The notes below the pieces were generated by a model. That model was not told where the DNA came from. It was given only the letters and a program-made list of their open reading frames with translations, and did not search any database. Positions 1,185-61,212 of a stretch of 64,000 bases of DNA are shown in pieces; the first letter of the stretch is position 1, and the number at the start of each line of letters is the position of its first letter. A program made the position numbers and the translations under genes. The DNA lies in the NCBI RefSeq assembly GCF_041248615.1, contig NZ_CP158426.1, one strand, 5' to 3'. The DNA comes from Escherichia coli. GTDB taxonomy: Bacteria; Pseudomonadota; Gammaproteobacteria; Enterobacterales; Enterobacteriaceae.

Positions 1185-1317
1185 AACCAAACGACTCGGG
1201 GTGCCCTTCTGCGTGAAGGCTGAGAAATACCCGTATCACCTGATCTGGATAATGCCAGCGTAGGGAAGTCACGGACCACCAGGTCATTGCTTCTTCACGT
1301 TATGGCAGGAGCAAACT
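1185..1317 (+). promoter_or_regulatory. TPP (thi-box) riboswitch in the thiM 5' leader
   Basis: Sequence AACCAAACGACTCGGGGTGCCCTTCTGCGTGAAGGCTGAGAAATACCCGTATCACCTGATCTGGATAATGCCAGCGTAGGGAA matches the well-known thiM TPP aptamer (CUGAGA motif, P1-P5 arrangement), directly upstream of the thiM ATG. Confidence 0.9.
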
Positions 1318-2106: not shown

Positions 2107-2903
2107 AACGAATTAACGCTCTGACGATTGCCGGTACTGATCCGAGTGGTGGTGCGGGGATTCAGGCCGATCTTAAAACCTTCTCGGCACTTGGCGCTTA
2201 TGGTTGCTCAGTGATTACTGCACTGGTGGCGCAAAATACCCGTGGCGTACAGTCGGTGTATCGCATTGAGCCTGATTTTGTCGCCGCCCAGCTCGATTCG
2301 GTGTTCAGCGATGTGCGAATCGATACCACTAAAATCGGTATGTTGGCGGAAACCGATATTGTTGAAGCGGTGGCAGAACGGTTGCAACGTTATCAGATCC
2401 AAAACGTGGTACTCGACACCGTTATGCTGGCAAAAAGCGGCGACCCGCTGCTTTCACCTTCGGCGGTTGCTACGCTGCGCAGTCGATTATTGCCACAGGT
2501 TTCATTAATAACGCCAAACTTGCCCGAAGCTGCTGCCTTGCTCGACGCGCCACACGCGCGCACCGAACAGGAAATGCTGGAACAAGGGCGATCGCTGTTG
2601 GCGATGGGCTGTGGCGCAGTGCTAATGAAAGGTGGTCATCTGGATGATGAGCAAAGCCCGGACTGGCTGTTTACTCGCGAGGGAGAACAACGGTTTACCG
2701 CACCGCGCATTATGACCAAAAACACCCACGGCACTGGTTGTACGCTCTCTGCGGCGTTGGCTGCACTACGCCCGCGCCATACAAACTGGGCTGACACCGT
2801 ACAGGAGGCAAAAAGCTGGCTTTCATCGGCGTTAGCCCAGGCCGACACGCTGGAAGTTGGTCACGGTATTGGTCCGGTTCACCACTTCCACGCCTGGTGG
2901 TGA
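2103..2903 (+). CDS. thiD: Hydroxymethylpyrimidine / phosphomethylpyrimidine kinase
   Basis: 266 aa [34 protein letters not shown]...; PfkB-like ThiD, translationally coupled to thiM. Confidence 0.95.
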
Positions 2904-2958
2904 GCACCGTACTATAGCTGCTTTGGTTATTGTCAGCCTTTGGCACTGACATTCAGGG

Positions 2959-3786
2959 ATGAAACCAATGCAGCTAAGAATCACCAGTCGAAAAAAACTC
3001 ACCGCTTTATTATGCGCTCTTGGGCTAATTTCCATCGTTGCGATTCATCCGCGTCAGACGGTGAATTTTTTCTATTCGACAGCAATTCAGATTAAAGACT
3101 ACATCCACTTCTACGGTTATCGCCCGGTTAAATCTTTCGCTATTCGCATTCCTGCCAGTTACACCATTCACGGAATAGATGTTTCGCGCTGGCAGGAGCG
3201 AATCGACTGGCAGCGGGTGGCAAAAATGCGCGATAACGGTATTCGCTTGCAATTTGCCTTTATCAAGGCGACGGAAGGCGAAAAGCTGGTGGACCCCTAT
3301 TTTTCGCGTAACTGGCAACTAAGCCGCGAAAATGGCCTGCTGCGCGGGGCGTATCATTATTTTTCCCCGTCGGTATCCGCTTCAGTTCAGGCGAGATTAT
3401 TTCTGCAAACGGTGGATTTCTCACAAGGCGATTTCCCTGCCGTGCTGGACGTAGAAGAACGGGGAAAATTATCGGCAAAAGAATTACGCAAGCGGGTAAG
3501 TCAGTGGCTAAAAATGGTCGAAAAAAGTACGGGGAAAAAGCCGATTATTTACTCAGGAGCCGTTTTTTATCACACGAATCTGGCGGGCTATTTCAATGAA
3601 TATCCGTGGTGGGTGGCTCATTACTATCAACGTCGTCCGGACAATGACGGCATGGCCTGGCGCTTCTGGCAGCATTCCGACCGTGGACAGGTAGATGGCA
3701 TTAATGGTCCGGTGGATTTTAATGTGTTTAATGGCACGGTGGAGGAGTTGCAGGTATTCGTTGATGGGATTAAAGAAACGCCTTAA
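2959..3786 (+). CDS. yegX: Glycoside hydrolase family 25 (lysozyme-like) protein with N-terminal signal/anchor
   Basis: 275 aa ORF; position after thiD and recalled YegX identity; hydrophobic N-terminus LTALLCALGLISIVA. Confidence 0.8.
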   Translation: MKPMQLRITSRKKLTALLCALGLISIVAIHPRQTVNFFYSTAIQIKDYIHFYGYRPVKSFAIRIPASYTIHGIDVSRWQERIDWQRVAKMRDNGIRLQFAFIKATEGEKLVDPYFSRNWQLSRENGLLRGAYHYFSPSVSASVQARLFLQTVDFSQGDFPAVLDVEERGKLSAKELRKRVSQWLKMVEKSTGKKPIIYSGAVFYHTNLAGYFNEYPWWVAHYYQRRPDNDGMAWRFWQHSDRGQVDGINGPVDFNVFNGTVEELQVFVDGIKETP

Positions 3787-3837
3787 ATAAGAAGCAGTGA
3801 TATACTCCCACCAGACTCCCTGGCAGGAAAAAGACAA

Positions 3838-17453: not shown

Positions 17454-17480
17454 AAAAAATAAGCCCGTGTAAGGGAGATT
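17454..17480. other. 27-bp phage P2 attachment-site core (AAAAAATAAGCCCGTGTAAGGGAGATT) overlapping the cyaR 3' end; apparently unoccupied
   Basis: Exact 27-mer present in the sequence; identification as the P2 att core is from memory of the literature. Confidence 0.5.
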
Positions 17481-17540
17481 ACACAGGCTAAGGAGGTGGT
17501 TCCTGGTACAGCTAGCATTTTATGGGTTATGTTTTTCAGC
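17454..17540 (-). ncRNA. cyaR: CyaR (RyeE) CRP-dependent Hfq-binding sRNA
   Basis: Reverse complement equals GCTGAAAAACATAACCCATAAAATGCTAGCTGTACCAGGAACCACCTCCTTAGCCTGTGTAATCTCCCTTACACGGGCTTATTTTTT, including terminator hairpin and U-tail; possible TCACA CRP half-site upstream on the minus strand. Confidence 0.85.
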
Positions 17541-17624
17541 GAAACGGATGATAACCTTAATAAATGCAGCTGTATGTGATCGGTTTCTAAGAATTTTCCA
17601 TCCGGGAAAAATAATCGAAATTAA

Positions 17625-29200: not shown

Positions 29201-29381
29201 GGTAGAGCGTGACTACCTGAATGGTCGGATAGTCCACTTCCGGCAGCGCCGAAACGGGCAGGGCTCGATAACCGATAATCCCGGCGAGTAAGATCGCCAC
29301 CATCAGCAGCGTGGTGGCGACAGGACGCATAATAAACAGGCGCGACGGGCCGCCTGTGCTGCTCGGGGGTAACACCTGCAT
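26259..29381 (-). CDS. mdtB: RND multidrug efflux pump subunit
   Basis: 1040 aa RND protein [34 protein letters not shown]...; overlaps mdtA stop. Confidence 0.95.
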
Positions 29382-30628
29382 CAGGAGCGTGCTCCTTTTT
29401 TCGCGTATTCGCGGCTGGTGGCTTTCTCTTCCGGAGTGGTGGCGCTCTGGGCTTCCACTACTTCCACTTTCGCCCCTTCGGTCAGGCGATCAATGCCGTC
29501 TGTCACTACGCGGTCGCCCGCAGAAATACCTGCGCGGATCACCACTTTCTGACTGTCCTGAATGCCCGGCGTCACCAGATGTTTGCTGACCTTGTTTTCG
29601 CTATTCAGCACCCAGACAAAATGGCCTTCGTTGCCCATTTGCAGAGCGGCGGTGGGGATCACTACGGCGTTTTGTTCGGTGTCGACTAACATACGCGCGT
29701 TAACAAACTGATTGGGAAACAGCGCATCATCCTGATTATTAAAGCGTGCTTTCACTTTAATCGTACCGGTAGTGGCATCGATTTGGTTATCGAGACTTAA
29801 CAGCGTGCCTTCACTTAATTTCTTCGAGTTGGTGCGATCCCAGGCTTCAACAACCAGCGGTTTTCCGGCTTTTTGCGCCTGTACTACGGTAGCGATATCG
29901 CTTTCCGGCAGGGTAAAGAGCAAATCGATAGGATGCGTCTGGGTGATCACCACAATCCCGGTGGTATCACCACTGGAGATTTGGTTACCAACATCAACCT
30001 GCTTGAGACCAACGCGACCATCGATTGGTGCGGTGATGCGGCTCCAGTCGAGCTGCAGCTGCGCGCTGGCGACGCTTGCTTCATCAGCCTTAATGGTGCC
30101 TTCGGTTTCACTGACCAGCGCCTGTTGGGCATCCAGCTCCTGGCGGGAGACAAGATTGGTTTTTGCCAGTTGTTGATAACGCGCCAGGTCACGGCGGGCG
30201 TTGGCAAGCGTGGCTTTATCTTTTGCCAGTTGGCCCTGGGCTTGTGCTAATGCAACTTTGAACTGGCTTGGGTCAATTTCTGCCAGTAAATCGCCTGCTT
30301 TGACCTGCTGGCCTTCCTGGAAATGTAACGCCATCAGTTGACCGTCCACGCGGCTGCGCACCGTAACGGTATTAGCGGCGGTAATGGTGCCAAGCCCGGT
30401 GAGATAACGTGGCACAGCTTGTTCTACGGCAGTCGCCGCCTGAACCGGGGCTAATGGGCCGGCACGCATACCACGGCGACCACCCGCTGGCGATTGCTGC
30501 GCTTGTTTCGTCGCCCCTGGGGCTGCACTCTGGGAGTCATTGCGGCCTTGCCAGAACCAGAATGCGGCGATGGCGGCGATAACCAACACGATTACGATTA
30601 CCCAACGGGATTTATAACTGCCTTTCAT
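29381..30628 (-). CDS. mdtA: Membrane fusion protein of the MdtABC efflux system
   Basis: ORF 29381..30775 trimmed to [27 protein letters not shown]... (415 aa); the upstream in-frame extension is unlikely to be coding. Confidence 0.9.
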
Positions 30629-30681
30629 CGTTAAGAGTTTCTCTTCCTGAAACGTTTCACGGAATGATACTAGTGTAGCCA

Positions 30682-30699
30682 GCCAATAAGGGAGAAAAA
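30682..30699 (-). promoter_or_regulatory. Candidate BaeR box upstream of mdtA
   Basis: Minus-strand sequence TTTTTCTCCCTTATTGGC closely matches my recalled BaeR consensus TTTTTCTCCATDATTGGC; located about 55-70 nt upstream of the mdtA start. Confidence 0.5.
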
Positions 30700-30856
30700 T
30701 GGAGGAATTATGAAACACTGTCGGGAATCGTCTGAATGACGGGCACATTTGCGAGCACGCATCCAGTAATAACACATGAAACTATTTTATCTGCAAGTTA
30801 GCGATAGACTGCTTGCATGGCGAAAGGAGGTAAGCCGCCGTTTTCAGCGGGACGCT

Positions 30857-30999
30857 GAAACGGGAAAGCCCCTCCCGAGGAAGGGGCCTTAAATAAGGAA
30901 AGGGTCATGATGAAGCTACTCATCATCGTGGTGCTCTTAGTGATTAGCTACCCAGCATACTAAGACTACCAGGGCGGGGGAAACCCCGCTCTACCCTCA
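30857..30999 (-). ncRNA. Sib antisense RNA (SibB-like), copy 1
   Basis: Minus-strand promoter TTGACA-17nt-TACTTT (31034..31006) and hairpin GCCCCT/AGGGGC followed by U-run near 30857-30887; transcript fully overlaps the ibs ORF. Ends are approximate. Confidence 0.6.
30907..30963 (+). CDS. Type I toxin Ibs (18 aa, MMKLLIIVVLLVISYPAY), IbsB-like
   Basis: Short hydrophobic ORF with SD AAGGAAAGGG upstream; matches recalled Ibs family; too short for the ORF track. Confidence 0.75.
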   Translation: MMKLLIIVVLLVISYPAY

Positions 31000-31184
31000 C
31001 TCCTGAAAGTATGCCTTCACGATAAGATTGTCAATCTGCAGGCTTTGCAGTCTGCGATCCTGCCAGCAAATATTCTTTGCGAGACGTTACGCAATAATCA
31101 CACTGGAAACTATTTTATCCGCAAGTCAGCGATAGACTGCATACAGGGCGAAAGGAGGTAAGCCGACGATTTCAGCGGGACGCT

Positions 31185-31327
31185 GAAACGGGAAAGCCCC
31201 TCCCGAGGAAGGGGCCTTAAATAAGGAAAGGGTCATGATGAAGATACTCATCATCGTGGTGCTCTTAGTGATTAGCTACCCAGCATACTAAGACTACCAG
31301 GGCGGGGGAAACCCCGCTCTACCCTCA
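31185..31327 (-). ncRNA. Sib antisense RNA, copy 2
   Basis: Same promoter and terminator as copy 1, shifted by 328 bp. Confidence 0.6.
31235..31291 (+). CDS. Type I toxin Ibs (18 aa, MMKILIIVVLLVISYPAY), IbsB-like, second copy
   Basis: Same unit as copy 1 shifted by 328 bp; one substitution (L4I). Confidence 0.75.
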   Translation: MMKILIIVVLLVISYPAY

Positions 31328-31513
31328 CTCCTGAAAGTATGCCTTCACGATAAGATTGTCAATCCGCAGGCTTTGCAGTCTGCGATCCTGCCAGCAAATA
31401 TTCTTTGCGAGTCGTTACGCAATAATCACAGAGGAAACTATTTTGGTCACGCGTTAGCGATAGACTGCATTCAGGGCGAAAGGAGGTAAGCCGACGATTT
31501 CAGCGGGACGCTG

Positions 31514-31662
31514 AAACGGGAAACCCTCTCCCGGAGAAGAGGGCTTTTAATAAGGAAAGGGTTATGATGAAGCACGTCATCATACTGGAGATACTCTTAG
31601 TGATTAGCTTCCAGGCTTACTAAGAACACCAGGGGGAGGGAGAAACCTCTCCCTAACCCTCA
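31514..31662 (-). ncRNA. Sib antisense RNA (SibA-like), copy 3
   Basis: Minus-strand promoter TTGACA-17nt-TAATTT; terminator hairpin CCCTCT/AGAGGG plus U-run. Ends are approximate. Confidence 0.55.
31564..31623 (+). CDS. Type I toxin Ibs (19 aa, MMKHVIILEILLVISFQAY), IbsA-like
   Basis: Diverged third unit; SD AAGGAAAGGG conserved. Confidence 0.7.
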   Translation: MMKHVIILEILLVISFQAY

Positions 31663-31843
31663 CTCCTGAAATTATGTCACTCCGCCCTTAGTGTCAATCG
31701 ACGGCTCTCCGTTCTTGCGAGGCGAATAGCAAAATTTTCTGCGCCGCCGGGCCTAATTCTGAAAGTTTCTTCGTTTGCTCTTATTTCATTATTGCAATCG
31801 GTATGATACCGGGCCTCAATAATTCTCTAAGAAAGGATTTCTT

Positions 31844-32503
31844 ATGAGCGAACAAATCACGTTTGCCACCAGCGATTTTGCCAGTAACCCGGAACCACGT
31901 TGCCCCTGCATTTTGCTGCTGGATGTTTCTGGTTCTATGAACGGTAGACCTATTAATGAACTTAACGCCGGATTGGTTACCTTTCGCGATGAGCTGCTTG
32001 CCGATTCGCTGGCCTTAAAAAGAGTGGAACTCGGCATTGTGACGTTCGGCCCGGTGCATGTGGAACAACCCTTTACCAGCGCCGCTAATTTTTTCCCGCC
32101 CATCCTGTTTGCCCAGGGCGATACACCAATGGGCGCTGCCATTACCAAAGCCCTGGATATGGTAGAGGAGCGGAAACGTGAGTATCGTGCAAATGGTATT
32201 TCGTATTATCGCCCGTGGATTTTCCTGATCACCGATGGCGCTCCAACCGATGAGTGGCAGGCTGCCGCCAACAAAGTGTTTCAGGGGGAAGAAGATAAGA
32301 AGTTTGCCTTCTTTTCCATCGGTGTTCAGGGGGCGGATATGAAGACTTTGGCACAAATCAGCGTTCGTCAGCCTTTGCCACTGCAGGGATTACAATTCCG
32401 TGAACTGTTTAGCTGGTTATCCAGTTCGCTGCGTTCGGTTTCCCGCTCCACGCCGGGAACGGAAGTTGTGCTGGAAGCGCCAAAAGGCTGGACGTCAGTG
32501 TGA
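31844..32503 (+). CDS. yegL: von Willebrand factor A (vWA) domain protein, TerY-like
   Basis: 219 aa; MIDAS motif DVSGSM at residues about 27-32 ([12 protein letters not shown]) and later threonine/aspartate positions (LITDGAPTD). Confidence 0.85.
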
Positions 32504-44435: not shown

Positions 44436-44472
44436 TGTAGGCCTGATAAGACGCGTGAAGCGTCGCATCAGG
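44436..44472. repeat. REP element downstream of asmA
   Basis: TGTAGGCCTGATAAGACGCGTGAAGCGTCGCATCAGGC palindrome. Confidence 0.55.
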
Positions 44473-44708
44473 CGTTCGTGGCGGCACCATTATATTCTGA
44501 ATATGTAAGATCGAAGGCTGTTCCGTTCACTTGATGTTCCTCGCTACTATGGAACGCTCAAGCCGGTGAACGTGCCAGGATGGCTCAATCTCCACCACCC
44601 TGGCAACCCGGACCCACACCCCCGCTGTGATGTCCATGTACCACAGACAACGCTTCATTGCTGAAGTTATAAGGCGTTACGCAGCATTGGGTAAAATGGC
44701 CGATACCA

Positions 44709-46292
44709 TCACACCTCGTACTCCATCTCGCCATCCTTACGCAGCGGTATAATCTGCACCTTCTGCACGCGATGGCTTTCCACCTGCAACGTTTTGAGCA
44801 AGTAATCCCCTACCTGAACTTCTTCGCCAGGTTTTGGAATACGCTGCAAATATTCCATCAGCAGCCCGGCAATGGTGTGATATTCGCGTTTCTCATCCAG
44901 CGGTAGCGGCACATATTGCACCAGATCTTCCAGTGGCATATGACCATTCGCCGTCCAGGAACCGTCGGCGTTTTTCTGAATATCATGGCGGGCGTCGATC
45001 TCTTCCACTTCGTTCGGTAAGTTACCGGCAATGGTTTCAGTGACGTCACTTAATGTCACAATCCCTTCCACCGAGCCAAACTCATCCACTACAAAAGCAA
45101 AGTGCGTGCGGGCATTACGGAACTGCTCCAGGGCAGGTAACAACGGCAAGGTTTCCGGGAACACCAGCGGCTGGCGAATCAACACCCGCAGGTTGAGCGG
45201 TTCGCCGCGCAGAGACTGTTGTAGCAGGTCGATAACGTGAACAACACCGAGCAAATCTTCTGCGTCATCACCGTCGGTAACCACCAACCGCGTATGCTGA
45301 TTTCGCTCCAGCAACTGGCGGATTTCTTCTTCCGGCGCGTTGAGATCGATATGCTCAATATCGTGGCGCGACGTCATAATGCTGCTGACGGTACGCTGGT
45401 TAAGATTAAGTACCCGCTCAATCATCCGCCGTTCCTGCGGATTAAAGATCTGCTGGTTACCATGATCCACCAGCATGGACGCGGTTTCGGCGTCCAGTTC
45501 CGCATCTTCTTTTTGCCCGCTAAGCAGGCGCATTACCGCTTCGGTAGTCCGCTGGCGCAGCGTCTGGTTAGCGGAAAGAAAACGTCGCCGGTTAAAGATA
45601 GCCAACTGATTGAGCGCCTCGATCATCACCGAGAAACCAATAGCAGCGTACAGGTAGCCTTTCGGAATGACGAAGCCGAAACCTTCTGCCACCAGGCTAA
45701 AGCCAATCATCAACAGGAAGCTTAAGCAGAGAATAACGATCGTCGGGTGACTGTTAACAAATTGCGTTAACGGCTTGCTGGCCATCAACATCAGGCTAAT
45801 AGCGATAACGACGGCGGCCATCATGACCAGTAAATGGTCGACCATCCCGACGGCGGTAATCACCGAGTCGAGTGAGAAGATGGCGTCCAGTACCACAATT
45901 TGTGTCACCACCCCCCAGAACTTCGCACCTTTGCGTTGTGTGGGGTTATTGCTGTCTTTCCCTTCCAGCCGTTCGTTCAGCTCCATCGTGGCTTTGAACA
46001 ACAGGAAGAAACCACCAAACAGCATGATTAAGTCGCGGGCGCTAAAGGTAAACGAGCGAAAGCTGAATAGCGGTTGTGTCAGGGTGACCAGCCAGGAGAT
46101 TGACGCCAGCAGTAACAGGCGCATTAACATCGCCAGCAGCAGCCCGGTAACCCGTGCGCGGTCGCGCTGCTTCGGCGGTAGTTTTTCGGCGAGGATGGCA
46201 ATAAAGACCAGGTTATCAATGCCGAGGACCAGTTCGATCACAATCAGCGTGATTAACCCGGCCCAGATAGACGGATCGGCAATCCATTCCAT
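44709..46292 (-). CDS. yegH: TerC-family membrane domain fused to CBS pair and CorC/HlyC transporter-associated domain
   Basis: ORF 44709..46358 trimmed to [34 protein letters not shown] (527 aa). Confidence 0.8.
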
Positions 46293-46467: not shown

Positions 46468-46760
46468 TATGGAGACACAATATTAAATATTGTCAACCTA
46501 AAGAAACTCCTAAAAACCATATTGAATGACACTTAATATAATTCTTAAAAATAGCCAATTGCCGAATTGTTACCTTGCCTGCTATTCCGTTAGCTGTAAC
46601 ACTTCCTCCTGCATTATTGGAGAGCCAATCTTCAATTACCATAATGTCACCTTATATTCGGAAGTTAATTTCCGCAATAACCCTTTCTCATCAACGACTG
46701 TATGTTGAGAGGGTTTTAAAAATTAAGCTAAATCAGTATATTGGTAGCTAAAAAGCCAGG

Positions 46761-46772
46761 GGCGGTAGCGTG
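46761..46772 (+). promoter_or_regulatory. ops element (GGCGGTAGCGTG) within a JUMPstart sequence in the wza leader; RfaH-dependent antitermination signal
   Basis: Exact match to GGCGGTAGNNTG about 180 nt upstream of the wza start. Confidence 0.65.
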
Positions 46773-61111: not shown

Positions 61112-61212
61112 CAGTTGAATAATCAACCGGATTAATTCTCCGGTAAATAACGACAAAAACAAAATTGGCCGTTTCGGTCAGGGCCAACTATTGCCTGAAA
61201 AAGGGTAACGAT

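Follow-up and report, generated by a model that had tools for sequence, protein, structure and literature searches.

The type I toxin-antitoxin family Ibs/Sib, its tandem arrangement between mdtA and yegL, and the differences in Ibs number between strains were all established before the present analysis. The number of SIB repeats reportedly differs among related bacteria, as a 2008 abstract by Fozo and co-workers is said to state. The closest described counterpart of the locus considered here is the sibA/ibsA-sibB/ibsB pair of E. coli K-12 MG1655 (b4436/b4667 and b4437/b4668), which is flanked by mdtA and yegL, has a repeat of 328 bp, and carries each ibs ORF inside an antisense Sib RNA. A further K-12 member of the same RNA and peptide family, ibsC/sibC, is a single unit elsewhere; it has been experimentally dissected and is the source of the mechanism outlined below, and its different TRD sequences give cognate-only repression. 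More distant parallels are ldr/rdl (LDR repeats) and zor/orz, in which a small hydrophobic toxin is likewise paired with an RNA antitoxin and duplicated in one intergenic region, with the copy number of zor/orz varying between strains. The sequences of both systems are, however, unrelated to Ibs/Sib, and Orz pairs with the 5' UTR, so that the whole ORF is not covered.

In the K-12 homologues, Sib represses its cognate ibs mRNA via two independent recognition domains, after which the duplex spreads and is cleaved by RNase III; in SibC these are TRD1 (+46 to +68), whose pairing site is within the ORF, and TRD2 (+99 to +115), which targets the translation-initiation region (PMC2943612). An excess of IbsC causes depolarisation of the inner membrane in a matter of minutes, and central hydrophobic and C-terminal residues of the peptide are required for toxicity (reviewed in PMC8309996). 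IbsA from Salmonella is reported to bind subunits a and b of Fo and to inhibit ATP synthase, and the L11A substitution abolishes the activity of this peptide (2025 preprint, bioRxiv 10.1101/2025.05.26.656083). With respect to copy number, Fozo et al. 2010 report, in their Table 1, Ibs counts of 6 for EDL933 (O157:H7), 7 each for S. boydii and E. fergusonii, and 4 for S. flexneri, and lineage-specific duplications are discussed in the same paper (PMC2887945). The same laboratory's 2024 survey by BLASTn dealt with tisB, shoB and zor and left out ibs/sib, and no report of an ibs/sib copy-number distribution was found in the literature searched.

The window analysed here is a 64,000-nt stretch of an E. 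coli genome (contig NZ_CP158426.1). Its mdtA-yegL interval corresponds to the K-12 sibA/sibB locus in both flanks and repeat unit, but holds three units where K-12 holds two. The array and its flanking genes, the latter as annotated by PGAP in the identical genome GN02461, are as follows.

30748-31697, strand not assigned: SIB tandem array of three 328-bp units (repeat search and TRF)
29381-30628, minus strand: mdtA, the left flank, transcribed away from the array
31844-32503, plus strand: yegL, the right flank

With Tandem Repeats Finder, a single array was obtained at 30767-31676, with a period of 328, 2.8 copies, 90% matches and a score of 1439, and a repeat search returned three in-register copies at a spacing of 328/328, the first two being 93% identical over 300 nt. 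The units of the window are 94-98% identical to those of K-12. A preliminary description of this DNA had proposed three tandem units with a period of about 328 bp between mdtA and yegL, and both repeat analyses and the PGAP flanks bear this out; the extent it had given, 30776-31690, is correctly located yet slightly narrow, the full repeat running from approximately 30748 to 31697.

Each unit carries a short ORF on the plus strand, given here from its translation and from the PGAP annotation of GN02461, where the product name of all three is 'type I toxin-antitoxin system Ibs family toxin'.

30907-30963, plus strand: ibs of unit 1, IbsB type, 18 aa, MMKLLIIVVLLVISYPAY, WP_001386901.1
31235-31291, plus strand: ibs of unit 2, IbsB type, 18 aa, MMKILIIVVLLVISYPAY, WP_012767742.1
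31564-31623, plus strand: ibsA-type CDS of unit 3, 19 aa, MMKHVIILEILLVISFQAY, WP_072146903.1

The three peptides are hydrophobic (GRAVY 1.6-2.15), and their translations are exactly those of the preliminary description, which had also noted a conserved Shine-Dalgarno sequence; in the sequence this is a purine-rich AAGGAAAGGG tract that precedes the ATG of every ORF. All three ORFs are intact, each having its start codon, its stop codon and its SD tract. No convincing consensus for an ibs promoter was seen upstream of the three window ORFs, and the mapping by Han et al. covered only ibsC and ibsD. Other ORFs of at least 20 aa in the array, exemplified by the 42-aa minus-strand ORFs at 30798-30926 and 31126-31254, were rejected as mechanical, since they are without an SD and extend beyond the Sib terminator.

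On the minus strand, the Rfam family SIB_RNA (RF00113; gathering score 56) gave three full-length matches covering model positions 1-147, with E-values of about 1e-30. The ends of the RNAs listed here were placed solely by homology, through alignment of the annotated K-12 sibA and sibB RNAs to the window, and their terminator hairpins are predicted.

30863-30998, minus strand: Sib RNA of unit 1, SibB-like, 136 nt; 141.6 bits; 130/136 identical to K-12 sibB; terminator hairpin 30865-30890
31191-31326, minus strand: Sib RNA of unit 2, 136 nt; 140.8 bits; 129/136 identical to SibB; terminator hairpin 31193-31218
31518-31661, minus strand: SibA (unit 3), 144 nt; 145.9 bits; 141/144 identical to K-12 sibA; terminator hairpin 31521-31546

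Folding predicts that each Sib RNA terminates in an 11-bp G+C-rich hairpin, and the fold z-scores relative to shuffled sequences are -3.86, -3.7 and -4.4 for units 1, 2 and 3, respectively. With ends placed by homology, the coordinates locate each ibs ORF and its ribosome-binding site wholly within the antisense Sib RNA. Although the toxins are annotated in the RefSeq record of GN02461, the Sib RNAs are not. The following putative promoters were read from the sequence.

31006-31034, minus strand: promoter of Sib unit 1, TTGACA at 31034-31029, 17 nt, TACTTT at 31011-31006
31334-31362, minus strand: promoter of Sib unit 2, TTGACA at 31362-31357, 17 nt, TACTTT at 31339-31334
31669-31697, minus strand: promoter of SibA, TTGACA at 31697-31692, 17 nt, TAATTT at 31674-31669

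In each unit, 7 nt separate the -10 box from the Sib start expected from K-12 homology (30998, 31326 and 31661). The sequences and the 17-nt spacing agree with the preliminary description, but its label of 'near-consensus' was generous: the -35 boxes are perfect, whereas the -10 boxes share just 3/6 positions with TATAAT. A simple scan of 30600-31860 for sigma-70 consensus promoters and terminators called neither the Sib promoters nor the minus-strand terminators, because of these -10 boxes and because the U-tracts are short.

SIB_RNA scores of 141-146 bits, E-values near 1e-30 and fold z-scores of -3.7 to -4.4 exclude a chance origin. Together with the position of the ORFs antisense to and inside the Sib RNAs, the identity to the K-12 Sib RNAs, and the PGAP product names, they make the identification of the three modules secure, and the Ibs/Sib assignment of the preliminary description is upheld by the Rfam family and the PGAP naming. 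We therefore regard it as practically certain that 30748-31697 is a chromosomal SIB repeat array of three intact tandem Ibs/Sib type I toxin-antitoxin modules, and that three units is one common copy-number state; none of the data speak against this reading. The array is already known and annotated in RefSeq, and is a polymorphic toxin-antitoxin array. The novelty implied by the preliminary description is therefore not sustained, as differences in Ibs counts had been tabulated in 2010 (PMC2887945).

By analogy with the K-12 homologues, the modules of the window would be expected to operate by the same mechanism. The plus strand of each encodes a hydrophobic Ibs peptide of 18-19 aa, and the minus strand would give a Sib RNA of 136-144 nt that would span the entire ibs ribosome-binding site and ORF. 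The first contact between Sib and ibs mRNA would be made through TRD1, in the ORF, and TRD2, in the translation-initiation region; pairing would then extend to a long duplex, such that translation would be blocked and the RNA cut by RNase III. Any surplus Ibs peptide would insert into the inner membrane and depolarise it.

To examine copy number across the species, the 1.8-kb region was compared by megablast with 5,426 complete E. coli genomes. Many genomes, including O157:H7, are collinear with the window and carry three annotated Ibs genes; others carry two, and some four. MG1655 carries only sibA/ibsA and sibB/ibsB between mdtA and yegL, so that the two units attributed to K-12 in the preliminary description are confirmed by the annotation, and the case it had raised against itself, a reference that also has three, does not apply to MG1655. 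For counting, the unique left and right flanks were concatenated into queries of 200, 600, 1300 and 1800 nt, and the flank pieces were joined only if the distance between them did not exceed 500 bases plus half the length of the query, which sets a gap limit for each query.

200-nt query, gap limit 600 bp: 83 genomes joined, at most 1 unit
600-nt query, gap limit 800 bp: 2,308 genomes joined, at most 2 units
1300-nt query, gap limit 1150 bp: 4,479 genomes joined, at most 3 units
1800-nt query, gap limit 1400 bp: 5,105 genomes joined, at most 4 units

Subtraction gives the copy-number classes among the 5,416 complete genomes that hold both flanks.

At most 1 unit: 83 genomes, 1.5%
2 units: 2,225 genomes, 41.1%
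3 units: 2,171 genomes, 40.1% (O157:H7 included)
4 units: 626 genomes, 11.6%
Remainder, larger or IS-interrupted arrays: about 311 genomes, 5.7%

These classes rest on the distance between the flanks, and arrays interrupted by an IS fall into the 5.7% remainder, where units are uncounted. In the genomes listed individually, flank-to-flank spans of approximately 300, 632, 960 and 1288 bp and the annotated Ibs counts agree with the classes. In strain 124611, an IS150 insertion lies within the array. The three-unit state is thus ordinary in E. coli, and as common as two; neither is the reference state within the species, and the two-unit state of K-12 offers no species-wide reference. The quantitative distribution for this locus in 5,416 complete genomes is a useful by-product of the analysis. 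That two and three units are almost equally frequent (41% and 40%), four being present in 12%, could reflect selection on dosage rather than neutral instability of the repeats.

Comparison of individual arrays illustrates how the units vary. In O157:H7 9.1_Anguil (NZ_CP076235.1), as in the window, two 18-aa B-type units are followed by a 19-aa IbsA beside yegL, all annotated by PGAP; its B-type units, encoding MMKILIIVVLLVISYPAY and MMKWIIIVVLLVISFPAY, are 91.5% identical, whereas the corresponding cores of the window differ by 1 nt. The same repeat family occupies the same locus as four units in AGR6128 and 21F61, as two units without ibsA in AR_0089 and Nissle 1917, and as one-unit arrays. 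These arrays differ from that of the window in copy number and in their sets of unit variants, and their existence indicates that the array expands and contracts. Across strains and positions, the Ibs variants comprise L4/Y15, I4/Y15, W4-I5/F15, L4/W15 and L4/F15, and B-type units are 91-97% identical both within and between strains. The variable sites of the units form mosaics, while the first unit always retains a position-specific left edge, a combination expected if the repeats undergo unequal crossing-over and gene conversion. The copy-number polymorphism, from one to four or more units, thus very probably stems from exchange among the 328-bp repeats, through unequal homologous recombination as well as gene conversion.

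The polarity of these changes was approached with a scan of one genome per species for an exact 21-nt pattern, in which loci were of uneven length and which gives a partial picture of the outgroups. Citrobacter species, as well as Salmonella enterica arizonae and diarizonae, have a single unit adjoining mdtA, with 19-aa A-type peptides. In E. whittamii and Escherichia sp. MOD1-EC7003, a single 18-aa B-type unit lies between mdtA and yegL. Two units are present in Escherichia sp. E1V33 and in Pseudocitrobacter faecalis, and E. albertii and E. fergusonii gave no match to the exact 21-nt pattern. The single unit in related genera and sister Escherichia indicates that multi-unit arrays are derived by tandem duplication, and the array very probably expanded within Escherichia from a single ancestral mdtA-adjacent unit.

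The significance of the locus lies mostly in its correct annotation, and what remains are two small lineage-specific details, the separation of the unit 1 and unit 2 cores by only 1/136 nt and a rare V9E form of IbsA; this twin module and the altered toxin would only refine a system that is already well understood. The similarity of units 1 and 2 is uneven along their length. Upstream of the Sib 3' end, 18/115 nt differ (84% identical), but the Sib/ibs core differs at the single position mentioned above and the promoter and spacer segment at 1/77 nt, and the cores have accordingly been homogenised in the lineage of the window. The one core difference falls at Sib position 83 (window 31244 versus 30916), where it changes ibs codon 4 from L to I; in the RNA it lies in the loop of hairpin 73-92 and, by SibC numbering, outside both TRD1 and TRD2. 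Since the sole difference spares both recognition domains, the Sib RNAs of units 1 and 2 probably cross-repress both mRNAs, to judge from the sequence. If true, this would break the cognate-only rule described for K-12.

Two alternative accounts of the third copy itself were considered. Short reads can mis-assemble 328-bp tandem repeats, and a two-unit array could in this way have been wrongly expanded. Yet units 1 and 2 are distinguishable, differing at 14/330 aligned positions; the 1.8-kb region has counterparts of 99% identity or better in nine complete genomes; GN02461 (an E. coli blood isolate from the USA) shows 100% identity over 1.8 kb and has three toxins annotated by PGAP; KE55 has flanks 100% identical to those of the window and an equal span; and some 2,171 complete genomes show three-unit spacing. 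An assembly artefact is therefore very unlikely, and close to refuted. The other account, that ibsB/sibB was recently duplicated in this lineage from a K-12-like two-unit ancestor, extends the suggestion of the preliminary description that an IbsB-like unit is duplicated relative to K-12. The extra unit is indeed of the 18-aa IbsB type, but the suggestion is oversimplified, as three units are as common as two and the units are mosaic. Nor is unit 1 the K-12 IbsB: the K-12 peptide ends in ...ISFPAY and those of the window units in ...ISYPAY, and K-12 ibsB is 95.5% and 94.2% identical to the window units, equal to neither. The near-identity of the cores and of the adjoining 77 nt does fit a recent duplication or conversion, as does GMF065, whose 300-nt flanks are both 100% identical and which shares the V9E ibsA but has only two units. 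However, the B unit of GMF065 shows 8 differences from unit 1 of the window, of which 5 form a cluster in the ORF's distal half (unit positions 178-193), and is therefore no simple deletion product; the two-unit state with such a divergent unit instead implies that exchange is ongoing in the lineage of the window. Units 1 and 2 are, moreover, only 84% identical over the 115 nt that lie upstream of their cores, which a simple recent duplication leaves unexplained, and about 40% of E. coli, e.g. O157:H7, have three units that are 91-96% mutually identical. A recent lineage-specific duplication is thus rather unlikely, and the data are better read as an old multi-unit array in which exchange continues, combined with recent homogenisation of the cores in the lineage of the window.

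The old array could still hold one or more units that are decayed relics and not working modules, and here unit 3 is the relevant case. The IbsA of the window is K-12 IbsA with a V9E substitution (GTG to GAG, 31588-31590). The glutamate introduces a charge midway along the hydrophobic helix, shortens the longest hydrophobic run from 10 to 5 residues, and reduces core hydropathy from 3.53 to 2.83. Because central hydrophobic residues matter in IbsC (PMC8309996) and L11A inactivates the Salmonella peptide, V9E may weaken the toxin, as judged from its sequence; moreover, K-12 already tolerates ibsA expression without SibA (PMC2943612). Against decay, the three ORFs retain their start, stop and SD tract, all of the Sib RNAs score as full-length family members behind perfect -35 boxes, and the substitution alters both strands together, so that cis pairing with SibA stays perfect. 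Furthermore, the exact 60-nt V9E allele recurs in 15 independent complete genomes of the 4,446 having ibsA. Decayed units are therefore unlikely overall, and only the toxin of unit 3 could have decayed. That the haplotype constitutes a natural experiment, combining cross-repression between units 1 and 2, decay of the V9E toxin and dosage selection on copy number, we consider quite improbable. Should IbsA-V9E be non-toxic, unit 3 would be a toxin-defective module within an array of otherwise intact modules, and a disarmed toxin with its SibA retained would represent an early step toward an orphan antitoxin.

Units 1 and 2, the two B-type units of the array, have 136-nt Sib/ibs cores that are identical except at one nucleotide. 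This lone difference (30916 in unit 1, 31244 in unit 2) lies at Sib position 83, which is also codon 4 of ibs. Over the 115 nt upstream of the cores, the two units share just 84% identity, and this combination of near-identical cores and diverged upstream sequence points to recent homogenisation of the core. Judged from the same sequence comparison, modules 1 and 2 probably cross-repress each other. The situation differs from that in O157:H7, where the two B-type units are clearly unlike each other.

The third unit carries an unusual form of the toxin. In its IbsA (ORF 31564-31623), codon 9 (31588-31590) encodes a V9E substitution, which places a charged residue amid the hydrophobic helix of the peptide. 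The exact allele is rare: among the 4,446 complete E. coli genomes with ibsA, just 15 carry it. From its position, the substitution may lower the toxicity of IbsA, with SibA being retained.

Other array states occur in the species. By megablast, ibsA is absent from approximately 18% of complete E. coli genomes, and some two-unit arrays, including those of AR_0089 and Nissle 1917, consist of two B-type units without any ibsA. In strain 124611 (NZ_CP158317.1, locus 2459-3828), an IS150 element lies within the array, between the B-type unit and ibsA. This insertion indicates that some of the 5.7% of complete genomes falling outside the one- to four-unit flank-distance classes represent interrupted arrays rather than longer ones.

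In GN02461, an E. coli genome whose 1.8-kb array region matches the window at 100% identity, the RefSeq annotation (NZ_CP095533.1) includes all three Ibs coding sequences but no Sib ncRNA feature in the equivalent of 30863-31661, whereas both sibA and sibB are annotated in the K-12 record.

The 117-nt gap between mdtA and the array (30631-30747) shows 86-95% identity to Citrobacter, as compared with a lower 77-80% for the mdtA coding sequence. It contains the following motif:

30682-30699, minus strand: TTTTTCTCCCTTATTGGC, within the stretch upstream of mdtA

Seventeen of the 18 positions of this motif agree with the published BaeR box consensus, so the 117-nt stretch is probably the conserved mdtABCD promoter.

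Between yegH and asmA, a RelE/ParE-family toxin and a helix-turn-helix protein are annotated in GN02461, while the same interval in K-12 MG1655 is an empty 273-bp gap.

about 44469-45087, minus strand: type II toxin-antitoxin pair from the GN02461 annotation, placed by offset from the 1.8-kb array region, the only part aligned to that genome

Aside from the Sib RNAs, Rfam matches in the window number four, all expected in such a chromosomal region:

1187-1283, plus strand: TPP riboswitch, upstream of thiM
17457-17542, minus strand: CyaR sRNA
46734-46772, plus strand: JUMPstart element, preceding the colanic acid genes
61159-61208, plus strand: algC RNA
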